Positions 27,920 to 62,552 of a stretch of DNA of 64,000 bases are shown here, piece after piece. The position numbers and the translations under genes were made by a program. The stretch covers positions 1,024,001 through 1,088,000 of the forward strand of contig OZ241889.1 of NCBI GenBank assembly GCA_965203355.1, written 5' to 3'. Below the pieces are notes generated by a model. It ran no database searches and was not told the DNA's origin. It saw nothing but the letters and a program-made list of their open reading frames with translations. The stretch's first letter is position 1; the number at the start of each line of letters is the position of its first letter. Source of the DNA: Candidatus Latescibacterota bacterium. GTDB taxonomy: Bacteria > Latescibacterota > UBA2968 > UBA8231.

Positions 27920-28520
27920 TCAAGGTAGCTTGGTCATCTTCTTGGTTTTCACGCTGCCATCTACCTCAACCTGATAGATATACACCCCGGCCGCCACTAC
28001 CTTGTCGGCCTCGTCGCGGCCATTCCACATAAACCGATGGCTCCCCGCCCCAAGCGGCCCCTGCCACACCTGCCGCACCCGACGACCCAACACGTCGTAC
28101 ACCCGCAGCGACACTCGCGCCGCGTCCTGTGCCAAATCGAGGGGAAGCACGACCGCCGGGTTGAACGGATTGGGGTAGCTATGGCCGAGGCGATGGTGCG
28201 CTGGCTGCGCTGCTAGCGCGGTAACGCGCCCTGTAACAACTCCTCGACTCCAGTCAGTTCAATCCAATCCACTTCCAAGCCCGCTGGCTTAGCCGAAGCT
28301 GGCCTGTCGGTCATATCCTCCAAGCCAAACACGAGTCGAATATCATCTAACAGCCCCTCCCACAAGGGATAATACCCCCAGTAACTCTTCTCCATGTCAA
28401 CCAACGAAAACTCGAACTCTTGCCATTCGGTCGTATATACAAACTCGCCGTAGGTGCCGTTTGAGGGAAGGGAGAACCGCGCCCTACGCGGAATGAGGAA
28501 AAAGGCTTGACAACCAGTTC
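27920..28520 (-). pseudogene. Internally deleted remnant of a large secreted protein with a C-terminal FlgD-Ig/'PNPFN' domain
   Basis: One fragment (..YTTEWQEFEF..WEGLLDDIRL..EVDWIELTGVEELLQG, stop at 28213) is joined out of frame to HRLGHSYPNPFNPAVVLPLDL..VYDVLGRRVR..WNGRD..GVYIY; no start codon or signal peptide seen. Confidence 0.65.
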
Positions 28521-54274: not shown

Positions 54275-54958
54275 ATGCGCACCATTTTCGTCGGCGATGT
54301 CCACGGCTGCGCCGCTGAGTTTGCCGCCTTCTTGGCAAAGATACGTTACGACCGATCTCAAGATCGCCTGTTGCTGACCGGCGATGCCTTTGCTCGCGGC
54401 CCGGACCCGCTGGCCGTGTGGCAGTTGATCCAAGATACCCACGCCGAAATGGTTTTGGGCAACCACGACGCGCGCCTCTTGAAGCAACTAAATGCCTTAG
54501 GGAAGGGCCGCCAGCCCAAAGTGAAGTTCCCCGACCAGCGCTATACCCTCGCCCAGCTTCAGCCGGCCCACGAAGAAATCCTCGCTTGGCTTCGGCTGTG
54601 TCCGCTCTACATGGCCGAAGACGCTTTCTTGCTGGTCCACGCCGGTGTCCACCCGAAAAAGGGCTTACAAGGCACCCGCCGCAAAGAATTCCTCAAGATC
54701 CGCACTTGGCCGCCCTCGGACGATCTCGCCAGCCCGCGCTGGCACGATTTCTACGAGCCGGAGTACCCCCTGATCGTCTTTGGCCACGACGCGCCCGGCG
54801 GCTTGGTGGTCAAAAAGCGCGCGGGCCGTCCCTACCTTATCGGCCTTGACTCGGGCTGCATTTACGGCGGCCAGCTCAGTGGTTATGTGCTTGAAGAAGC
54901 GCGGCTCGTGCAGGTGGAGAGCCAGCAAGCGGCGCAGGTGTGGAAGCGGCTTGCTTAG
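54275..54958 (+). CDS. Metallophosphoesterase (ApaH/PrpA-like)
   Basis: GDVHG, GD..ARGP, GNHD, HAG, FGH, LDSGC. Confidence 0.9.
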   Translation: MRTIFVGDVHGCAAEFAAFLAKIRYDRSQDRLLLTGDAFARGPDPLAVWQLIQDTHAEMVLGNHDARLLKQLNALGKGRQPKVKFPDQRYTLAQLQPAHEEILAWLRLCPLYMAEDAFLLVHAGVHPKKGLQGTRRKEFLKIRTWPPSDDLASPRWHDFYEPEYPLIVFGHDAPGGLVVKKRAGRPYLIGLDSGCIYGGQLSGYVLEEARLVQVESQQAAQVWKRLA

Positions 54959-56109
54959 GCGAGGTCGCCGTTCCAGAGCATTTGGACGAAGGTGGCTGCG
55001 GGCAGGATGTCGATGCCGTCGTCCGTGCGGTGCGCCCGGGGTTCGAGGCACGCGACCACTCGTCGGCTGACGCTCGGATGATCTGCTACTAGGCTGCGCA
55101 GCCCTTTCAAGTGGTTGCCAACGATGTGATTGCTCGCCTTGGCCTCGACCGCTATCCGCATGTCGCCCAAGATAAAATCGACCTCGGTGCCGCCGGCTAG
55201 ACGCCAATAAGTCAGTTCGCCGTCGAACGCTTGATAGTCGGCAAACGCGGTCAATTCGTGGAACACCCAGTTTTCAAATGCCTTGCCGTATAGCTCCGAT
55301 CCCGGTAGCAGTTGGCCCCGGTGGGCGAGTCGGTTGGCTACGCCAACATCCGCAAAATAGAACTTCGGCGCGGCAACCACTCTGCGCTTGGGACGCCGGC
55401 GGAAGGCGGGCAACCAGCGCCCGAGCAGCGCGTCTTCGAGAATCTCGTAGTAGCTCCGCGCCGTGTGACTGGTGACGCCGCACGCCGGGGCGATATTAGA
55501 GAAGTTGACCATTTCGGTATCGCCTAGCGCGGCGGCGGCTAAAAATCCAGCAAACGCCGGCAAACTGCGGACCAGCCCTTCGGCCGCGACTTCCTCCTTG
55601 AGATAGTCGGCGACATAAGCGTCGAGCAACCGCGCCGGCCGGGTGTTGGCGTAGATTCGGGGCAGGTAGCCGTGGTTGAGGAGGCGGGTGAGATCAAAGT
55701 CGGCGCCGAGTTCCCGCGCGGTCAGCCCGTGTAGTTGGTGTCGCACGGCCCGTCCGCCGAGCAGGTTGGCACCTCCGCGCCGCACCTTGCGGGCACTGGA
55801 ACCGCACAGAGCGAAACACAACCCTCGGTTTTCGATCAGCCAATGCACCTCGTCGAGCAGCGCAGGTACCTTCTGAATCTCATCAATGACGATCTGGCGC
55901 TTGGGATCGAATCCTGTGGCCTCGATTTCATGACGCAAAAACTCTGGATTGGCGACGTACCGCCTGAACTCGTCTGCCTTTAGGAGGTCGAGCCACAGGC
56001 CGTCGGCGTACTGGTGTTTTAGCAGGGTGCTTTTGCCCGCCTGTCGCGGCCCCCAAAGGAAAAACGTCTCGGTGCCGGACGCGGGTAGGTTCAGAGCTCG
56101 CTCGTACAT
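54955..56109 (-). CDS. AAA_14 ATPase with DUF4143 and C-terminal PD-(D/E)XK-like domain
   Basis: GPRQAGKST, IDEIQK, GSSA, LLGGRA, PKFYFADVG, EVDF..AVEAK. Confidence 0.9.
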   Translation of the reverse strand: MYERALNLPASGTETFFLWGPRQAGKSTLLKHQYADGLWLDLLKADEFRRYVANPEFLRHEIEATGFDPKRQIVIDEIQKVPALLDEVHWLIENRGLCFALCGSSARKVRRGGANLLGGRAVRHQLHGLTARELGADFDLTRLLNHGYLPRIYANTRPARLLDAYVADYLKEEVAAEGLVRSLPAFAGFLAAAALGDTEMVNFSNIAPACGVTSHTARSYYEILEDALLGRWLPAFRRRPKRRVVAAPKFYFADVGVANRLAHRGQLLPGSELYGKAFENWVFHELTAFADYQAFDGELTYWRLAGGTEVDFILGDMRIAVEAKASNHIVGNHLKGLRSLVADHPSVSRRVVACLEPRAHRTDDGIDILPAATFVQMLWNGDLA

Positions 56110-56113
56110 GAAC

Positions 56114-56185
56114 TTAAAATTAACGTGTAAATTTGAAATAGCTATTCAAAATTGCATGATAATTTGAAGTAGCGGTTCAAAATTA
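56114..56185. promoter_or_regulatory. Array of imperfect palindromes with 31-bp period upstream of the DUF4143 ATPase
   Basis: ttaaaattaacgtgtaaatttgaa (56114), ttcaaaattgcatgataatttgaa (56145), half-site ttcaaaatt (56176). Confidence 0.55.
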
Positions 56186-56238
56186 CAGAAAAATAAAGGC
56201 ACCCGGACGCGCCTTCAGGAAGCGATCTATTGCCTCAA

Positions 56239-56436
56239 ACGTAGTACATGACTTCGTGCGCTTGTGCCTGCGCGATGTCGTAGGCTGCTTGCAGCCGTAT
56301 CCAAGTAGCCGAAGGTTTTGGCGAGGCGGATGGCCATATCGGCCGACATGTGTGCGCGACGATTCACCAAATTCGAGAGGGCTTGGCGACTGACGCCGAG
56401 GCTCTTCGCGCCTTCGGCGACGTCCTTTCTGGGCAC
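56239..56436 (-). pseudogene. HigA-family antitoxin remnant
   Basis: VAEGAKSLGVSRQALSNLVN....SADMAIRLAKTFG, then after a frameshift/deletion TWIRLQAAYDIAQA; N-terminal HPG motif lost. Confidence 0.75.
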
Positions 56437-56531
56437 TGGTTATCAATAGAGTGGAGTAAAACACTATGGGGCGATCTAGACATTGCCCTTGACTTTTTTT
56501 GGTCTATATTTGGTCCGAAAAGGAGGTGCCT

Positions 56532-56807
56532 ATGAAACTGTCCAGCCAGATTAAGCCGATCAGCTATCTCAAGGCCCACGCCGCTGAGATCGTGCGCACA
56601 CTTGGAGATCAACCAGAACCCTTGATTATCACTCAAAATGGCGAAGCCAAAGCGGTCATGCAGGATATAGACAGCTACGAGCAGATGCAGGAAACAGTTG
56701 CATTGCTCAAGATTCTCGCGCTGGGTAGCCGGCAGATCGAAGCAGGTCAGGTGCAGCCCGCCGCCGATGTCGTCGCCCGGCTCCGGGAGCGGCCACGGGA
56801 TCGCTGA
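56532..56807 (+). CDS. Phd/YefM family antitoxin
   Basis: RBS AGGAGG; IKPISYLKAHAAEI, IITQNGEAKAV; overlaps the toxin start (TGATG). Confidence 0.92.
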   Translation: MKLSSQIKPISYLKAHAAEIVRTLGDQPEPLIITQNGEAKAVMQDIDSYEQMQETVALLKILALGSRQIEAGQVQPAADVVARLRERPRDR

Positions 56808-57133
56808 TGGCTTGCTTGGTTCAGTTGACTGCTGACGCAACGCGCGATTTGGAGGAAATATGCGATTCCATCGATCGGCATGATGTGCCGGGTCGGGCGG
56901 CTTATGTGCTGGAGCAGATTGAGCAGGCTTTCGGCCGCCTTTCTGAATATCCCGAGCGGGGAAACTACCTGATGGAACTGCTGGACATTGGCATTCGGGA
57001 ATACCGCGAGATATTCTCCAAACCCTACCGCATCATCTATCGGATAATAAAAAATAACGTCTATGTGCTCTTGATCGCCGATGGACGACGCGACATGCAG
57101 ACGTTGCTACAGCGGCGCTTGCTGTGGGCGTAA
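56807..57133 (+). CDS. RelE/ParE family toxin
   Basis: TADATRDLEEI, YPERG, PYRIIYR, IADGRRDM; translationally coupled to the antitoxin. Confidence 0.9.
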   Translation: MACLVQLTADATRDLEEICDSIDRHDVPGRAAYVLEQIEQAFGRLSEYPERGNYLMELLDIGIREYREIFSKPYRIIYRIIKNNVYVLLIADGRRDMQTLLQRRLLWA

Positions 57134-57344
57134 TTTTCATGATCTCCGACTGGGGCACAGCGGCTCATAAGTCGCGCTCCCGACCGATCCCGTTCAGATC
57201 GTCGAGGCTGTAGTTGAATACGACTTACTGGGCGTAGAGGTAGCCTCAGCTAAAAGTGCTCATGTACTGGGCGACGGCGAAGGATAAGGCCAAGCAGCAA
57301 GCGAAGATGATGCGGATTATGTGGGGTGAGATGAGTTTTTACTC

Positions 57345-57378
57345 AACTTAGCCCACAGGTGCGACAGATCGCGTCGCA
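57345..57378 (-). promoter_or_regulatory. Putative WYL-regulator operator/promoter, copy 2
   Basis: Palindrome TGCGAC-agatcgc-GTCGCA at 57360-57378; on the minus strand followed by 9 nt and TAAGTT, as in copy 1. Confidence 0.65.
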
Positions 57379-57390
57379 GGCGGAAAATTT

Positions 57391-58338
57391 TTATGGCCGA
57401 ATCAAGTGCTCGACAAGTTCTAGTGCATCCACCGGCCAATAGCACGCTGGGCGAGGTTGATGGACATTGGGGTCTCCTTCCCTTGGTCGGCAGTTCAAGA
57501 GCCGGTCCACCCACCGCTCGGGGATGGCTTCTCGTCCATGCAGTGCGCCCAGCAGTGCGCCGCAGATGGCGGCGTTGGTGTCGGTGTCGCCGCCCCTGTG
57601 GACGGTATCTACGACAGCTTCCTCGAGATTCTCGGCGTGGAGCAGTTGCCATAGCGCGTTTTGGAACGCCGTCAGAACCAAGCCCTGTTCGTGCATATAA
57701 TCCGGCGGTGAAGTGATCGCGCTGTCGATGGCCGACATGAGCGTCGGTGCCGCTGGAATATCCGCGGCCCAGATCTTTATCTGTTTGTACAGCTCTTGGG
57801 GGCCGCATCCGGTGCGGACCGCGCAGGCAATGGCCGAAGCATAGAGCGAGTTGGCTTGCTGGCAGACCGGATGGGGATGCGTGAGTGCCGCGTCCTCGCA
57901 CGCCCATGATGCCACTTGCTCTAATTCGTAGTTAGCGCCGAAGATGCCCAGCGGGCTGATCCGCATCATGGCTCCGTTCGCTTGGCTACACTGATCGCGT
58001 TCACCTTGGAGGCCGCGGCGAATGGTGGTGCCGTAGTCGAACGGCTCAGAGTTGAACCAGCCGACATAAGCATCACGGGCAAGTGTTGGATCGTATCTGT
58101 TGTGTTGCGCCAGCACTCGGGCTAGGGCTAGCGCCATTTCGGAATCGTCCGTTGGTTGCCCGGCGATCGTGTTCCAAACCTCGCTGCCCTCGAGGTCGCG
58201 GACTCCGGCGGGGTGCTCGAACTGAATATCCTCGGGGCTTTGAAATTCCACTTGGCTGCCCAGCGCATCCCCGGCAAGTTGGCCCAGCAAGCAACCTTGA
58301 GCGCGCGCGAGGGTGTGGTCTCTTTCGCATATAGTCAT
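57391..58338 (-). CDS. ADP-ribosylglycohydrolase (DraG/ARH family)
   Basis: GQLAGDALG, GQPTDDSEMA, NGAMMRISP, LTHPHP, GGDTDTNAAICGALLGA. Confidence 0.93.
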   Translation of the reverse strand: MTICERDHTLARAQGCLLGQLAGDALGSQVEFQSPEDIQFEHPAGVRDLEGSEVWNTIAGQPTDDSEMALALARVLAQHNRYDPTLARDAYVGWFNSEPFDYGTTIRRGLQGERDQCSQANGAMMRISPLGIFGANYELEQVASWACEDAALTHPHPVCQQANSLYASAIACAVRTGCGPQELYKQIKIWAADIPAAPTLMSAIDSAITSPPDYMHEQGLVLTAFQNALWQLLHAENLEEAVVDTVHRGGDTDTNAAICGALLGALHGREAIPERWVDRLLNCRPREGDPNVHQPRPACYWPVDALELVEHLIRP

Positions 58339-58341
58339 TTA

Positions 58342-60411
58342 TCAAAAACCCATTTTGCGTGAATGATTCGGCTTAGCTTCGCACTCGGCGCACAGCAATT
58401 CTGCGAGCGCCTTGGCGTCTTGCAGGTGGCCGAGGATTTCGGCTTTGCGGCGGACTACGGCGAAATCACCTGGGGTCAGAGTGGAGAGGTCGCCGATTGC
58501 AGGCGGAGCTTCGAGCGCGAAATAGGTGTGGAACGCCGCTTGCGACTGGTCGGGGGTGAGATAGTCGAGCGCGATTTTGAAGGTGAAGCGGCGCAAGGTG
58601 GCCGGGTCGAGGTTTTCGCCGAAGTTGGTCGTACAGGCAAACGGCAGGGGGTGGCTCTCCATCCAAGTCAGCATTTCGTTGACTTGGCTGACTTCCCAGG
58701 AACGCACGGCACCGCGGCGGTCGGCGAGCAGGGAGTCGGCCTCGTCAAAGACGAGAATAGACTTTTCGGCACGTGCTTCGGCAAAGGCCGCGGCGATTCG
58801 CTGTTCGGTTTCGCCGACCCACTTGGACAAGAGGTCAGAAGCCCGCTTGTGGGTGACTTGGAGGCCGAGGCGTTCGGCTAGGTAGCGGACGAATGCGCTC
58901 TTGCCGGTGCCGGGCGGACCTTGCAGGCAAAGAGAGAAGTTCTGGCCGCTGGTTTTTGCGAGGCGATCCGCGAGTTGGACCGGGTCGGTATCGGCTTGGA
59001 CTAGGGCGAGGTCGAATCGCTCAGGAGGCCCCTGATTTGCGGGGGGCTTCTCGCCCACAATCACTTTGGCCAAACTGCGGACGCCGAGGCGCACTGCGGT
59101 GAGGTCGCCGCCGCAGAGGCCGGCCGCGGCGATGGCCCCAGACGCTACGCCAGGTGTCACATCGAATTCCTTGGCGAGGGCGTGCGTATCCGCGTCTGTC
59201 GCCTTGATGTTGCGGCGCGCCAACTCCCGTTTCCAGATACGCGCCCTAACTTGGGGCGGCGGCTTGCGCAACTCTAGGGCAAAGGTCATGCGGCGTAGGA
59301 GGGTGGCACAGGTTTGCCTAGCGGAGTTTGAGGTCCACAGCGTGGGCACGGGTGCGCGTTCTAGCACCCGGTTTAGGAATACCTTGGAACCGCCGGAGTG
59401 GAGCGTGGAGTAGCGGCTTGGGGCAAAGGGTATCCAGCCTGGATCTGAAAGTAAGTCCTCCATTTCGTCGAAGAGCAGGATTGACCCACGGCCCGACGCT
59501 AGCAAGCGCTGGGTGAGCCGAAGTTCTCGAAGACGCTCTTCCCGGTCGAGCTCGCGAATTCGCTCGTTCTCTTCGCCGACAGTATAGAGGTTCGCTTCGA
59601 GCCGGGCGGCCAGCGTCTTGCAAAACTCGGTCTTGCCGGTTCCCGGCGGGCCGTACACCAAGATATTTACGCCCGGTGTGCCTGCATCCAGTGCGCCTTT
59701 GAGCATTTTTTCGATATGATTGCGTTCCTCTGCTACGTGATCGAAATCCGCCCACGCTAGCTCGCCCGGGGCCGCCGTGTCGAGCAGTAGGCGACACACG
59801 TCGAGATCGCTATCGCCTGGGGCGGAGACCAGCCGTAGCAGTCGCTTGGCGAAGCCGATATCTCCGTCGTTATCGACTGACACAAGCCCGAATTCCACAA
59901 GCGGTGCATCAGCCGCGAAGCGGGCGCGGAATGCACTGCCCGATAGGCCGAGCAGGCAGGGTAGGACCGGCTCCATGACATTGAAGAGTCGATGTCTGCG
60001 TATAGCTCGCAAAGAATCGCCCAAATCCTCAAAGATCGGCTGGGTTTCGCAGCGAATCCACAGCTCTACGAGCGCGAGGTCGGTCGGCGCGAGGTCCATT
60101 TCCCGCTCAAGCCGCTGGATTTGTCGCGCTATGCGGTCTTTTCGCGTCTTTTTACGAGCCGCTACGCACTTTTTGTACTCTTTTTCGATAACCTCCCGCA
60201 GGACCTTCCAATCCCGGGCGGACAATCTCTTTTTGTCACGGCAGTGCTTCCATAGGTCGCTCAGCACCTCGTTCCCGTCACCGAGCGCGAGGATGTTTTG
60301 GTTCTGGGCGAGCCAACTAGCTAATGCCGTCTGTTCGGGGATGTGGTGGAAGCGCGAGACGGCGTTGGAAAGGTAAAAGAGAAGAAGCTGTCGTTCGTAG
60401 GCGTTGAGCAT
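58342..60411 (-). CDS. Tandem double AAA+ ATPase (COG0464 SpoVK/Ycf46/Vps4-like) with uncharacterised N-terminal domain
   Basis: Walker A GPPGTGKT and GPPGTGKS; Walker B LLFDEMED and LVFDEADS; pore loop SKWVGETE; LRRF Arg finger; C-terminal MGF. Confidence 0.9.
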   Translation of the reverse strand: MLNAYERQLLLFYLSNAVSRFHHIPEQTALASWLAQNQNILALGDGNEVLSDLWKHCRDKKRLSARDWKVLREVIEKEYKKCVAARKKTRKDRIARQIQRLEREMDLAPTDLALVELWIRCETQPIFEDLGDSLRAIRRHRLFNVMEPVLPCLLGLSGSAFRARFAADAPLVEFGLVSVDNDGDIGFAKRLLRLVSAPGDSDLDVCRLLLDTAAPGELAWADFDHVAEERNHIEKMLKGALDAGTPGVNILVYGPPGTGKTEFCKTLAARLEANLYTVGEENERIRELDREERLRELRLTQRLLASGRGSILLFDEMEDLLSDPGWIPFAPSRYSTLHSGGSKVFLNRVLERAPVPTLWTSNSARQTCATLLRRMTFALELRKPPPQVRARIWKRELARRNIKATDADTHALAKEFDVTPGVASGAIAAAGLCGGDLTAVRLGVRSLAKVIVGEKPPANQGPPERFDLALVQADTDPVQLADRLAKTSGQNFSLCLQGPPGTGKSAFVRYLAERLGLQVTHKRASDLLSKWVGETEQRIAAAFAEARAEKSILVFDEADSLLADRRGAVRSWEVSQVNEMLTWMESHPLPFACTTNFGENLDPATLRRFTFKIALDYLTPDQSQAAFHTYFALEAPPAIGDLSTLTPGDFAVVRRKAEILGHLQDAKALAELLCAECEAKPNHSRKMGF

Positions 60412-60438
60412 GGTTTCTCCCTCGAAATGACGCGGTGC

Positions 60439-60909
60439 TTACTGCGATACTAAAATCGCTAGATCGACATCTACTCCATCAAAAAGCGACTCTATCGCAA
60501 TACTTAAGAGAACCCTGTTAGAATCTACGATTAGGAGAGAGCCTTCGCCGACGACGAGGAACGGCGTCTCCAACTCGTCCTGTTCGGGTATGATCGATAC
60601 CGCAGATATTATGAGATAGTCTAGCGGCATGTATGCTACTGCGTCCGGTCCGAGGTGGGTGAGTGCTGTCTTGAGATAAAGGGCTTGGAAGGTTGTGGGC
60701 GTTATCCGTTCATCCTCAATGAAAATATCGCCGTCCTCGTCATAGAGGGAACGGGATAGTTGCCGCTCGATGATGATTCCTCCTCTGGGCGGCCCGGTTT
60801 CTCCCTGTGGCCCTTGCGGTCCGGCTGGTCCCATCGGTCCGGCGGGACCTTCGCAGGCGACAAGGCCGAAGGCCAACATAGCTGCTAAAAAAGAAAAGCG
60901 AGTAAGCAT
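60439..60909 (-). CDS. Collagen-like lipoprotein
   Basis: RBS AAGGAGG; lipobox LVA-C; GPAGPMGPAGPQGPQGETGPP (7 Gly-X-Y triplets). Confidence 0.8.
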   Translation of the reverse strand: MLTRFSFLAAMLAFGLVACEGPAGPMGPAGPQGPQGETGPPRGGIIIERQLSRSLYDEDGDIFIEDERITPTTFQALYLKTALTHLGPDAVAYMPLDYLIISAVSIIPEQDELETPFLVVGEGSLLIVDSNRVLLSIAIESLFDGVDVDLAILVSQ

Positions 60910-60939
60910 TGCACACCTCCTTTTAGTTGTGGTAAAGGA

Positions 60940-60973
60940 AACTTATTTAGGAGGTGCGACAGATCACGTCGCA
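60940..60973 (-). promoter_or_regulatory. Putative WYL-regulator operator/promoter, copy 1
   Basis: Palindrome TGCGAC-agatcac-GTCGCA at 60955-60973, then 9 nt and TAAGTT (-10-like) on the minus strand, about 45 nt upstream of the operon's first ATG. Confidence 0.7.
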
Positions 60974-61262
60974 GACAGAAGTTTTTTTAGAAAAAGATCA
61001 ATTTTCGTCAAAATCGTCCGCCTGACTGCGCTTGCGGCACGGCAAGGGATTACCGGACGAATTTGCCGAGAGGAGGGGGCTTGGGGTGCGCTTTTGAGAA
61101 GCAGGTTGATAGGGCGGAATAAAGAAGAGCCGTACTCGTCGAGGCTACGGAGTTGGGGTTTTTGGGGCGGGCATGTTGTGCCACTGATACGTCTATATGC
61201 GATCGGTGGGGACTTCTTGGCTATGATGTATGCAAAGGATGAGTCATAGAGTCTCACCGCCA

Positions 61263-61448: not shown

Positions 61449-61479
61449 TTAAACGCAATCCGTCATCCATCTGACAGGA

Positions 61480-62469
61480 TCACGTCGCTCCTTCATCCAA
61501 TCCCAGCACCGCTCGCATCTCCTCCCGCACCGCCTCCCGCAATTCCTCCGGCTCCAGTACCTCAGCCACCGCCCCAAAGCTCAACACCCAACTCTTGATT
61601 TCGTAGAACCCCCCGGCCCGCAGTCGCAGCACCACCCGCCCGTCGTCCAACTCTTCCAATTCTTGGCTCGGATGCCAAATCCGTTCCCGTATGTACGGTG
61701 CTTGCTGCTCGGTGAACCGAATTGCCACATCCATTGGCTCCTCAAGCGAGACGCCGAACGCATTGCTTACCTGCTCATCAACCGACAGGTGATCCTGCGG
61801 CTCAAACTTCTCCTCGGTCACTTCTACCGACTCAAAGCGATCCACCGCCTGCGTGATGAGCTGGTCGTAGTAAGGCACCCGTGAGATTGCGTATAGACCG
61901 CCTCGGTGAGGCATGAGGCGCAGTGGTTCTATATGGTACTGCCGGGCACTCTCGGCCCGTGGCGCGCGGTAGCTCACCCAACAAACGCGGCGTTCCAATA
62001 TGGCGTCGTGCAGGTTCTCGAGTATCTCGCATACATCTTCATAAGGCTTGTACCCGCGGGTGAGTGGCACATACGCCTCTGCCGCACGCTCTAGGAATCG
62101 CCGCATTTCCGAGGGCATGGCCTGAGTCAGCCTGCGAATCGCCGACCGCAGGTGCGCGCCAAATGGGGTGCCTACCAACCCCATGCCCGCCTGCTCGGCG
62201 AAGATCATCGCCGTGATTTCCATGATCGGAAAGTTTAGTGGCAGCTCGGGGTCTTTCAGCAGTTGGTAATAGATGCGCCGATCGACTGGCAACTTTTTCA
62301 TCAGAAACCCTATCGCGCGCAGGTCTTCCAAATCGCGTTGTATGGTGCGTCTATTTACTTTGTACTCGTCCGCCAGCTCGGGAACGCTTATTCCGTAATG
62401 ACGCGCTTGCATCGTCCGCAGGATGTCCAGTTGTCGCACAATCTGCTTCATCGAATCAGCCTTTATCAT
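61480..62469 (-). CDS. WYL-domain transcriptional regulator (wHTH-WYL-WCX; PafB/C/DriD/BrxR-like)
   Basis: HTH ELADEYKVNRRTIQRDLEDL; WYL-like IEPLRL..GLYA..AVDRF; WCX IRERIWHPSQ..EIKSWVLSFG..EVLEPEELR. Confidence 0.92.
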   Translation of the reverse strand: MIKADSMKQIVRQLDILRTMQARHYGISVPELADEYKVNRRTIQRDLEDLRAIGFLMKKLPVDRRIYYQLLKDPELPLNFPIMEITAMIFAEQAGMGLVGTPFGAHLRSAIRRLTQAMPSEMRRFLERAAEAYVPLTRGYKPYEDVCEILENLHDAILERRVCWVSYRAPRAESARQYHIEPLRLMPHRGGLYAISRVPYYDQLITQAVDRFESVEVTEEKFEPQDHLSVDEQVSNAFGVSLEEPMDVAIRFTEQQAPYIRERIWHPSQELEELDDGRVVLRLRAGGFYEIKSWVLSFGAVAEVLEPEELREAVREEMRAVLGLDEGAT

Positions 62470-62552
62470 AGATGCGAAACTACATGTAGTTCGGGGCGAT
62501 GATTATGGCTTGACTAGCGTTTTCTAAGAAACCTTTTTGTCGCCTAAATCTC

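Follow-up and report, generated by a model that had tools for sequence, protein, structure and literature searches.

A conserved promoter module probably dependent on an adjacent DriD-like WYL regulator in a Latescibacterota gene island

In a 64,000-nucleotide (nt) stretch of the genome of a Candidatus Latescibacterota bacterium (assembly GCA_965203355.1, contig OZ241889.1, positions 1,024,001 to 1,088,000; hereafter the window, numbered from its first letter), a short module is present twice on the minus strand, 3' of a gene for a transcriptional regulator of the WYL family. Each copy holds the palindrome TGCGAC-N7-GTCGCA, followed exactly 9 nt later by the -10-like hexamer TAAGTT. We consider it probable that copies 1 and 2 represent a conserved promoter module dependent on the adjacent WYL regulator. 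The kind of system, the DriD type, is already known. What is new is the phylum, the exact promoter geometry kept across phyla, the regulon arranged as cassettes behind the regulator, an operator overlapping a stop codon, and a fixed GATC at the centre of the palindrome. Literature on Latescibacter combined with WYL yielded nothing relevant by title or abstract.

RESULTS

The module is present exactly twice in the window

An earlier note on this DNA had reported a duplicated TGCGAC-N7-GTCGCA-N9-TAAGTT element, and both its coordinates and its description proved correct. Indeed, across the whole 64-kb window TGCGAC-N7-GTCGCA (TGCGACNNNNNNNGTCGCA) matched exactly at 57360-57378 and 60955-60973 only, whereas the mean count in 100 dinucleotide-shuffled sequences was 0.01 and none had as many as two. 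With up to 3 mismatches there was no enrichment in the window (49 matches versus 52.6 expected), and the bare core CGAC-N7-GTCG showed no clear excess there (3 versus 1.83), its third match, at 28083, looking like chance. On requiring NAnnnT 9 nt past the palindrome, again with up to 3 mismatches, five sites were retained in the window, and fewer than two mismatches were found in copies 1 and 2 only. The three other sites had 2-3 mismatches each and were set aside, as they look like chance.

A repeat search returned the two copies as a 36-nt direct repeat with 86% identity, 3595 nt apart, and pairwise alignment restricted their similarity to ~50 nt, with unrelated flanks. Read on the minus strand, both present the same order, that is, an A-tract, ~8 nt, the palindrome, CCT, six variable bases and TAAGTT. 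Dispersal in the manner of repetitive extragenic palindromes (REP) or miniature inverted-repeat transposable elements (MITE), with many copies in both orientations and away from gene starts, was not what we found, as there were two copies in 64 kb. A scan for sigma-70 promoters detected no minus-strand promoter with both -35 and -10 at either copy; by direct reading, the best -35 candidate was GTGATC, with 3/6 positions.

The gene order on the minus strand is the regulator gene, a 570-nt gap, copy 1, and then genes for a lipoprotein, an AAA+ ATPase and an ADP-ribosylglycohydrolase. The ATG of the lipoprotein gene, at 60909, is 30 nt past the copy 1 -10 hexamer and is preceded by AAGGAGG as ribosome-binding site (RBS). 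A transcription start is predicted near 60933, and copy 1 is most likely the working promoter of the lipoprotein/Cdc48-like AAA+/ADP-ribosylglycohydrolase operon.

The module recurs with fixed geometry beside orthologous regulators

A profile of 45 regulator homologs led to 79 loci (designated below by L numbers). They comprise 23 ortholog loci, with regulators 68-86% identical, most of them labelled Latescibacterota and four Gemmatimonadetes or Gemmatimonadaceae, 21 paralog loci, and 35 distant loci from other phyla. Module counts refer to the window plus the 23 ortholog loci, with ~125 kb sampled on either side of regulator genes and one duplicate from overlapping loci removed. Positions set by the search pattern or by the filter are uninformative; information comes from the outer T/A, from the centre and from the spacing.

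We found 58 distinct CGAC-N7-GTCG sites, 48 of which had NAnnnT exactly 9 nt past the half-site on the regulator's strand, versus 0 on the other strand at that spacing. The full TGCGAC..GTCGCA was exact in 43 of these 48 modules. As to location, 47/48 stood at or after the stop codon of the nearest regulator, and the 48th was on a contig with two regulator copies, 3' of the second one. An RBS and an open reading frame (ORF) of at least 50 amino acids (aa) followed within 300 nt in 45/48, at a median distance of 48 nt, and all 48 modules were co-oriented with their downstream ORFs. Palindrome and -10 were fixed among the modules and the flanks were variable. The 10 sites that failed the filter comprised 2 that look like chance and 8 variant or decayed modules. 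As a control, the 35 distant loci held 13 core sites, and 2 of these had NAnnnT at the 9-nt spacing.

Copies 1 and 2 belong to different module classes

Module classes were defined by the sequence behind the palindrome. The class of copy 1, with spacers starting cctcc, is the commonest (22/48 modules); many of its members have TAAGTT or TAAATT, and it often stands before the lipoprotein-AAA operon. The class of copy 2, with the spacer cctgtgggc, accounts for 7/48. In relatives, modules of this second class precede a gene for a 212-214-aa outer-membrane protein (OMP) beta-barrel (L002, L004, L006, L014) or the gene for a DnaB helicase that passes the TIGR00665 cut-off (L003, L008). A local duplication giving rise to copies 1 and 2 was ruled out, since they are two different promoter classes, each conserved across genomes. 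The view that selection had acted on a promoter, as opposed to passive duplication, gained support from the 48 co-oriented modules, and the idea of a local duplicate pair had to be dropped.

The copy 2 operator begins 12 nt past the glycohydrolase stop codon. No minus-strand ORF of at least 20 aa was found starting behind it, and no known RNA either: at gathering thresholds, the only Rfam match in the window was a tRNA gene at 12637-12720 (minus strand). What follows copy 2 is a truncated remnant of an OMP beta-barrel gene (Table 1), 74% identical by tblastn to residues 15-64 of a 212-aa protein of L002 and L004 (E 1e-17) and interrupted by two in-frame stops. At the DNA level, homology behind copy 2 extends over ~210 nt at ~80% and ends at ~57184, just before the ParE gene. 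Alignment with relatives revealed a deletion of 11 nt with the RBS and GTG start, and a further 12-nt deletion in the signal peptide. Because the OMP gene has lost its RBS and start, gained two stops and been truncated, copy 2 is orphaned: to judge from its sequence, it is an intact promoter before a dead gene fragment, and would once have driven the OMP gene. It is speculation that any copy 2 transcript would run antisense into parE-phd.

TAAGTT in copy 2 is the result of a 1-nt deletion, the copy 2 class of relatives having GAATGT or TAATGT, so the hexamer shared by both copies is partly a coincidence. What the -10 keeps is its second base, A, and its sixth, T, together with the 9-nt spacing. 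Of the conserved -10 claimed in the earlier note, these features were borne out, and the shared hexamer as such was not.

A further class sits at the very end of the regulator gene. Its operator, TGCGAC-GTGATCT-GTCGCA, is intact in 15 related loci and overlaps the regulator stop codon there, with TAATAT or similar at 9 nt and, in most cases, a gene without assigned function behind it. We saw such operators in L001-L006, L008, L011, L013-L016, L020 and L022 at ~6969-6995 (in L014 at 5205-5223). The last regulator codons, GGT GCG ACG TGA, are a half-site plus part of the centre, so that the conserved C-terminal tail, ending in EGAT, is encoded by the operator. In the window this operator is decayed (Table 1). 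Homology and synteny of the regulator block with relatives stop inside it, at ~61473-61478, in 10 of the 12 loci compared.

Conserved sequence also extends upstream of copy 1 (Table 1), with partners in L002, L003, L004, L006, L008, L011, L014, L017 and L020. We found no support for an RNA structure in this element: RNAalifold gave a weak hairpin plus the operator palindrome, and 0/13 pairs were compensatory. The 186-nt copy 1 region had no match in plasmid or phage collections. The A-tract, near -54 to -50, may be an UP-like element, yet not an essential one, because the stop-codon class is without it. Incidentally, some lipoprotein-class modules, in L002 and L015 (at 775, 9539 and 9802), have one more TGCGAC half-site, which precedes the full palindrome by 4 nt.

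The regulator is closest to DriD among solved structures

The database copy of the regulator protein also has 323 aa. Its sequence matched the Pfam families HTH_11 (1e-9), WYL (6e-12) and WCX (1.6e-22), which, combined with an AlphaFold2 model, gave the architecture winged helix-turn-helix (HTH), three-helix bundle, WYL and WCX. The model, made with 45 homologs, had a mean pLDDT (predicted local distance difference test) of 77.8 and placed helices 76-87, 96-111 and 114-127 between HTH and WYL. In a phmmer search, the best PDB sequence matches were the DriD entries 9pfq and 8tp8 (E 2e-12, residues 9-320), and PafBC was at 0.0096. Likewise, the top Foldseek matches of the model were all DriD entries (8tp8, E 3e-18, ~320 columns, 22% identity). 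PafBC came next at ~1e-15 to 1e-14 (best 4e-15), and BrxR/CapW were at 1e-7 to 1e-6, ranking 18th or lower. Global TM-scores were low (0.27), the model having a different arrangement of the domains, as is expected for a flexible multi-domain protein. The notion of a DriD-like WYL protein next to the module was therefore upheld by both sequence (2e-12) and fold (3e-18).

In DriD, Arg37 and Arg41 read the guanines of CGAC/GTCG, and Glu40 reads the cytosine (PMC10853764). By eye, on the PDB alignment, the RRTIQR of the regulator aligns to DriD R36-R37-T38-A39-E40-R41, with both arginines kept and Glu40 replaced by Gln. The equivalents of Arg37 and Arg41 are R41 and R45 of the regulator's 329-aa ORF; they are nearly invariant and invariant, respectively, in the 45 homologs, and the motif RRTIQRD is invariant or nearly invariant throughout. 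The hallmarks of PafBC, a heterodimer and a non-palindromic -26 element, were not found here: there is a single 323-aa gene, and a perfect 6+7+6 palindrome.

Paralogous regulators are followed by variant sites at the same spacing

The paralog group comprises 21 loci with regulators ~45% identical. Directly 3' of the gene, 18/21 of these loci have an A-tract, (A/G)CGAC-N7-GTC(A/G)T, one base, 9 nt and then TATCTT or TAACTT, and in three of them (L033, L035, L038) the site is ATACGAC-N7-GTCGTAT, exactly the consensus published for DriD. Between regulator subfamilies, then, the flanks of the half-sites vary at constant geometry, and this is the strongest evidence we have for a reading of the site by the regulator.

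In L024-L033, L035-L039, L042, L049 and L051 we noticed by eye a GC-rich hairpin followed by a T-run directly 3' of the module, ~20-110 nt past the WYL gene. A transcript starting 6-8 nt past the paralog -10 would begin in the 5' arm of this hairpin. The hairpin could stop read-through from the regulator gene while the regulated promoter escapes termination, or it could make a very short RNA. In a Treponema assembly (L063, 875-920), ATACGAC-N7-GTCGGA lies ~40 nt behind the gene for a distant WYL homolog (38% identity), with TATAAT after 9 nt; the identical geometry is thus seen in a third phylum, as a single case.

The modules punctuate a variable gene island

On the upstream side of the regulator, three DUF5069 genes and a peptidase C26 gene are conserved. 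On the far side of the island, a ParE/Phd pair, a DUF4143 ATPase, a metallophosphatase and a radical-SAM (S-adenosylmethionine) gene recur. Content between these borders varies by genome, and nearly every unit starts with a module. Other cargo in relatives includes DnaB, a protein with weak DEDDh-exonuclease matches, a bacterial PH-domain protein and an IS1595 transposase. Most cassette proteins were without a family in Pfam, NCBIfam, PADLOC and PHROGs, and no convincing defence matches were obtained in relatives.

Of all the cargo, the double AAA+ gene is the most constant, and it is linked to both regulator subfamilies. It is 3' of the regulator in 14/23 ortholog loci (fragments in L017 and L021 counted) and is found, at ~40% identity, in 16 of the 19 listed paralog loci. 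The top PDB matches of the 689-aa protein were VCP-like ATPases and Cdc48 (2e-23). Its assignment to IteA/IetA (NCBIfam, PADLOC) was rejected, as one AAA domain only was matched, far below the cut-off; the IetA-like match in PADLOC (1.6e-26) is partial, covering residues 488-623. PADLOC gave nothing for the lipoprotein or the glycohydrolase. The glycohydrolase had a DraG-like match of 1e-40, below the cut-off. No Pfam family was found for the 156-aa lipoprotein; its L023 ortholog weakly matched Pfam Collagen (3e-4), and homologs stand behind a module in L003, L007, L011, L012, L015 and others.

The Phd/ParE pair bounds the island also in L002, L003, L004, L012, L014 and L017, and L016 has ParE only. 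As a whole, 54955-57133 is a defence- or addiction-flavoured neighbourhood.

Several rearrangements were observed in relatives. On the one contig of L002 and L005, the regulator-cassettes-ParE/Phd unit is tandemly duplicated, with the regulators 8.8 kb apart. In L016, the 3' part of another regulator gene copy is kept at 11754-11996, together with its operator but without a -10. In L021, the regulator (6001-6953) is frameshifted and exactly the 19 bp of the stop-codon operator are missing; modules are absent from this locus, and fragments only are left of the AAA+ gene. The L017 regulator (2850-3799) is frameshifted as well, and its modules are intact. Co-loss of regulator and operator was set aside as evidence, with one case each way (L021, L017) and assembly errors possible.

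We put forward, as a tentative idea that we hold possible rather than likely, that the regulator heads a recombining cassette array. The junction would be a portable regulator-dependent promoter of ~60-190 nt, and genes landing behind it would join one switch that senses damage or infection.

Table 1. Positions of the module copies, the regulator gene and neighbouring features in the window
Feature	Position	Strand	Basis
WYL-family regulator gene, 323 aa from ATG 62451, ORF open from 62469	61480..62451	minus	
Decayed stop-codon operator: AGCGAC, 8-nt centre, GTCAGA (not GTCGCA)	61471..61489	minus	sequence; -10 absent behind
Extended conserved sequence upstream of copy 1	60990..61077	minus	alignment with 13 modules of several classes, 9 relatives
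Copy 1 promoter module	60940..60988	minus	exact palindrome match and sequence reading
Copy 1 A-tract	60988-60982	minus	
Copy 1 operator TGCGAC-GTGATCT-GTCGCA	60973-60955	minus	
Near-invariant centre, copy 1	60961-60967	minus	
Copy 1 spacer, 9 nt	60954-60946	minus	
Copy 1 -10 hexamer TAAGTT	60945-60940	minus	
Copy 1 RBS AAGGAGG	60922-60916	minus	
Operon gene 1: 156-aa predicted lipoprotein, signal peptide ending LVAC, short collagen-like G-P-x repeat	60439..60909	minus	ORF
Operon gene 2: 689-aa protein with two AAA+ domains, Cdc48/VCP-like	58342..60411	minus	Pfam AAA 3e-34, two stretches
Operon gene 3: ADP-ribosylglycohydrolase, 315 aa	57391..58338	minus	Pfam ADP_ribosyl_GH 1.4e-63
Copy 2 promoter module	57345..57392	minus	exact palindrome match and sequence reading
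Copy 2 A-tract, overlapping the glycohydrolase stop codon	57392-57388	minus	
Copy 2 operator TGCGAC-GCGATCT-GTCGCA	57378-57360	minus	
Near-invariant centre, copy 2	57366-57372	minus	
Copy 2 spacer cctgtgggc	57359-57351	minus	
Copy 2 -10 hexamer TAAGTT	57350-57345	minus	
Truncated OMP beta-barrel pseudogene remnant	57183..57320	minus	tblastn and DNA alignment
Convergent Phd/YefM-ParE toxin-antitoxin pair bounding the island	56499..57133	plus	PhdYeFM_antitox 2e-18, ParE_toxin 1e-14
69-aa HTH_3 protein	56436..56227	minus	
AAA_14-DUF4143 ATPase	56109..54955	minus	PADLOC candidate family PDC-S01, 7e-50

DISCUSSION

Comparison with known WYL systems

The DriD operator is described as ATACGAC(X)7GTCGTAT, with the conserved core CGAC/GTCG (PMC10853764, PMC13004042). 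The palindrome CGAC-N7-GTCG that the earlier note had named for DriD agrees with this consensus. Comparison with the published motifs thus gave a match of the window palindrome to the DriD core, and the PafBC element, at -26 and non-palindromic, is unlike it. A palindrome taking the place of the -35, as had also been proposed, fits the geometry of a 2026 cryo-electron microscopy study, in which DriD promoters have no -35 and the DriD sites overlap its place, always equally far from the -10 (PMC13004042); the -35 candidate in the window, as said, is poor. In the three Caulobacter promoters printed in PMC13004042, the hexamers CAAGGT, CAATCT and CAAGCC, with AA at positions 2-3, start 9 nt past the downstream half-site by our own count. 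The operator-to-(-10) spacing would then be equal, 9 nt, in DriD promoters and in the window.

Further likenesses to DriD of Caulobacter crescentus, with its didA, bapE, CCNA_03891/01149, recJ and dnaG promoters, are the domain architecture, the base-reading arginines, the operator core CGAC-N7-GTCG (one Caulobacter half-site being TTGCGAC) and the placing of the operator, which covers the -35 position and keeps a constant spacing to the -10. In addition, two targets in relatives of the window belong to DNA metabolism, namely DnaB and the protein with weak DEDDh-exonuclease matches. The differences are also several. The window regulator is 22% identical to DriD and comes from another phylum; the flanks, TA/TA for DriD, are TG/CA here; the centre, variable and AT-rich for DriD, is fixed here as G(C/T)GATCT; a site in the regulator's own promoter is absent here; and the ssDNA (single-stranded DNA)-contact residues are partly conserved. 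Targets are clustered 3' of the regulator here, whereas they are scattered for DriD, and the main target, the Cdc48-like ATPase with the glycohydrolase, is not a known DriD target.

DdaA of Acinetobacter baylyi activates the DNA-damage response as a WYL homodimer. Its motif has the CGAC-N7-GTCG core, and the protein has equivalent arginines, R47 and R51, which are needed for its activity (PMC13010146). Unlike in the window, the aciT site lies ~160 bp upstream of the gene and the regulon is the classical one (recA, ssb, uvrA); this likeness was drawn by description. PafBC (Actinobacteria, RecA-NDp promoters) is also an ssDNA-responsive WYL activator that replaces the -35, and was the second-best fold match, but it is a heterodimer or fusion with a non-palindromic -26 element, binds only together with RNA polymerase and contacts sigma (PMC10853764, PMC13004042). 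SiwR of Mycobacterium smegmatis, likened by description as well, is a WYL activator that acts as a homodimer on an operon adjoining its own gene, where an imperfect palindrome of 19 bp lies between -35 and -10; in contrast to the window regulator, it relies on the -26 region like PafBC and has DinB-like targets (PMC10693628). Finally, BrxR and CapW resemble the system in the regulator gene directly upstream of controlled genes and in an inverted-repeat operator, but they are repressors with chains of 266-290 residues and gave far weaker fold matches.

Probable dependence of the module on the regulator, and rival explanations

In the mechanism that we propose, a regulator dimer would bind the 19-bp palindrome at about -40 to -22, and would thereby cover the place of the -35 hexamer. 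The bound regulator would recruit RNA polymerase to the -10 exactly 9 nt downstream, as in Caulobacter DriD. Binding by the WYL protein, activation rather than repression, and ssDNA, arising from damage or infection, as the signal are what we infer by analogy with DriD.

Several observations weigh against this proposal. No operator was found upstream of the regulator gene (62452-62552) by exact and degenerate scans, when 68/69 alphaproteobacterial DriD homologs have an operator in their own promoter (PMC10853764). Among the ssDNA contacts of DriD, Y168, S172, R178, Y192, K202, R204 and W206 (PMC9186387), the two tyrosines only are identical in the regulator, as judged by eye in a region of low identity, and the effector may therefore differ from that of DriD. 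The palindrome centre is nearly invariant, G(C/T)GATCT, with GATC in 44/48 modules and positions 9-13 identical in 45-48 of 48, whereas alphaproteobacterial DriD-type sites have a variable, AT-rich centre in 66/68 cases (PMC10853764). Something beyond a DriD-like reading of the half-sites must constrain it; the central GATC may add a second input, e.g. methylation state or a sigma-4 contact, both being guesses only. Copy 2 is left without a gene to regulate. Fourteen modules have up to ~170 nt of upstream sequence in common, so part of the similarity between modules reflects common descent by duplication. Our Caulobacter -10 hexamers were assigned by eye from promoter sequences. Last, promoter-overlapping operators are also used by repressors, and WYL regulators beside defence genes, BrxR and CapW, repress.

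That last point leads to a rival in which the WYL protein is a repressor like CapW/BrxR, blocking a constitutive promoter and leaving it on ssDNA. The WYL repressors of defence systems indeed have inverted repeats in promoters as binding sites and act as ssDNA sensors (PMC11662680, PMC9122601), the island has defence-flavoured genes (partial IetA-like AAA matches, a DUF4143 ATPase like PDC-S01, ParE/Phd), and the sign of regulation is not readable from sequence alone. We nevertheless regard repression as unlikely. By fold, BrxR/CapW are ten or more orders of magnitude below DriD, and PafBC is also far ahead of them; in the model, the 323-aa regulator appears to have a helical segment at the position of the DriD bundle, versus BrxR/CapW chains of 266-290 residues. 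The promoters are without a -35, and one exact distance separates operator and -10 in 48/58 sites. Such a fixed distance is required by an activator that docks polymerase and not by a repressor, and fits repression less well.

The module might instead be a repeat at cassette junctions, REP/MITE-like or similar to an attachment site, and not be bound by the WYL protein at all. Its length speaks for this, since up to ~170 nt upstream are in common, more than a promoter takes up; synteny with relatives breaks at the modules (~61473 and ~57395), gene content between modules varies among genomes, and an IS1595 transposase stands behind one module in L008. However, there are 2 copies in 64 kb, 48/48 modules are co-oriented and 45/48 have an RBS and ORF close by, no recombinase is consistently nearby, and plasmid and phage collections held no match to the module. 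The half-site, moreover, varies with the regulator subfamily, and the palindrome matches the core of the operators used by those characterised proteins to which the regulator is most closely related, which makes a mere junction repeat very improbable. As for a chance match, or a recent passive duplication without function, the presence of two copies only in the window could be taken in its favour. It has next to no probability left and we consider it refuted by the 0.01 copies expected, and by the orthologous counterparts that each copy has elsewhere, with diverged flanks. Dependence of the module on the adjacent regulator thus remains the reading that we hold probable.

Significance

If this is correct, the DriD mechanism, established in Caulobacter from 2022 to 2026, would hold also in a phylum that is represented here by metagenome-assembled genomes alone, with the operator core and the exact operator-to-(-10) geometry both kept. 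This would support the generality of the DriD mode of activation among homodimeric WYL regulators. It would also offer a compact inducible promoter-regulator pair, and it names the genes that such a switch would control, foremost the Cdc48-like double AAA+ ATPase.

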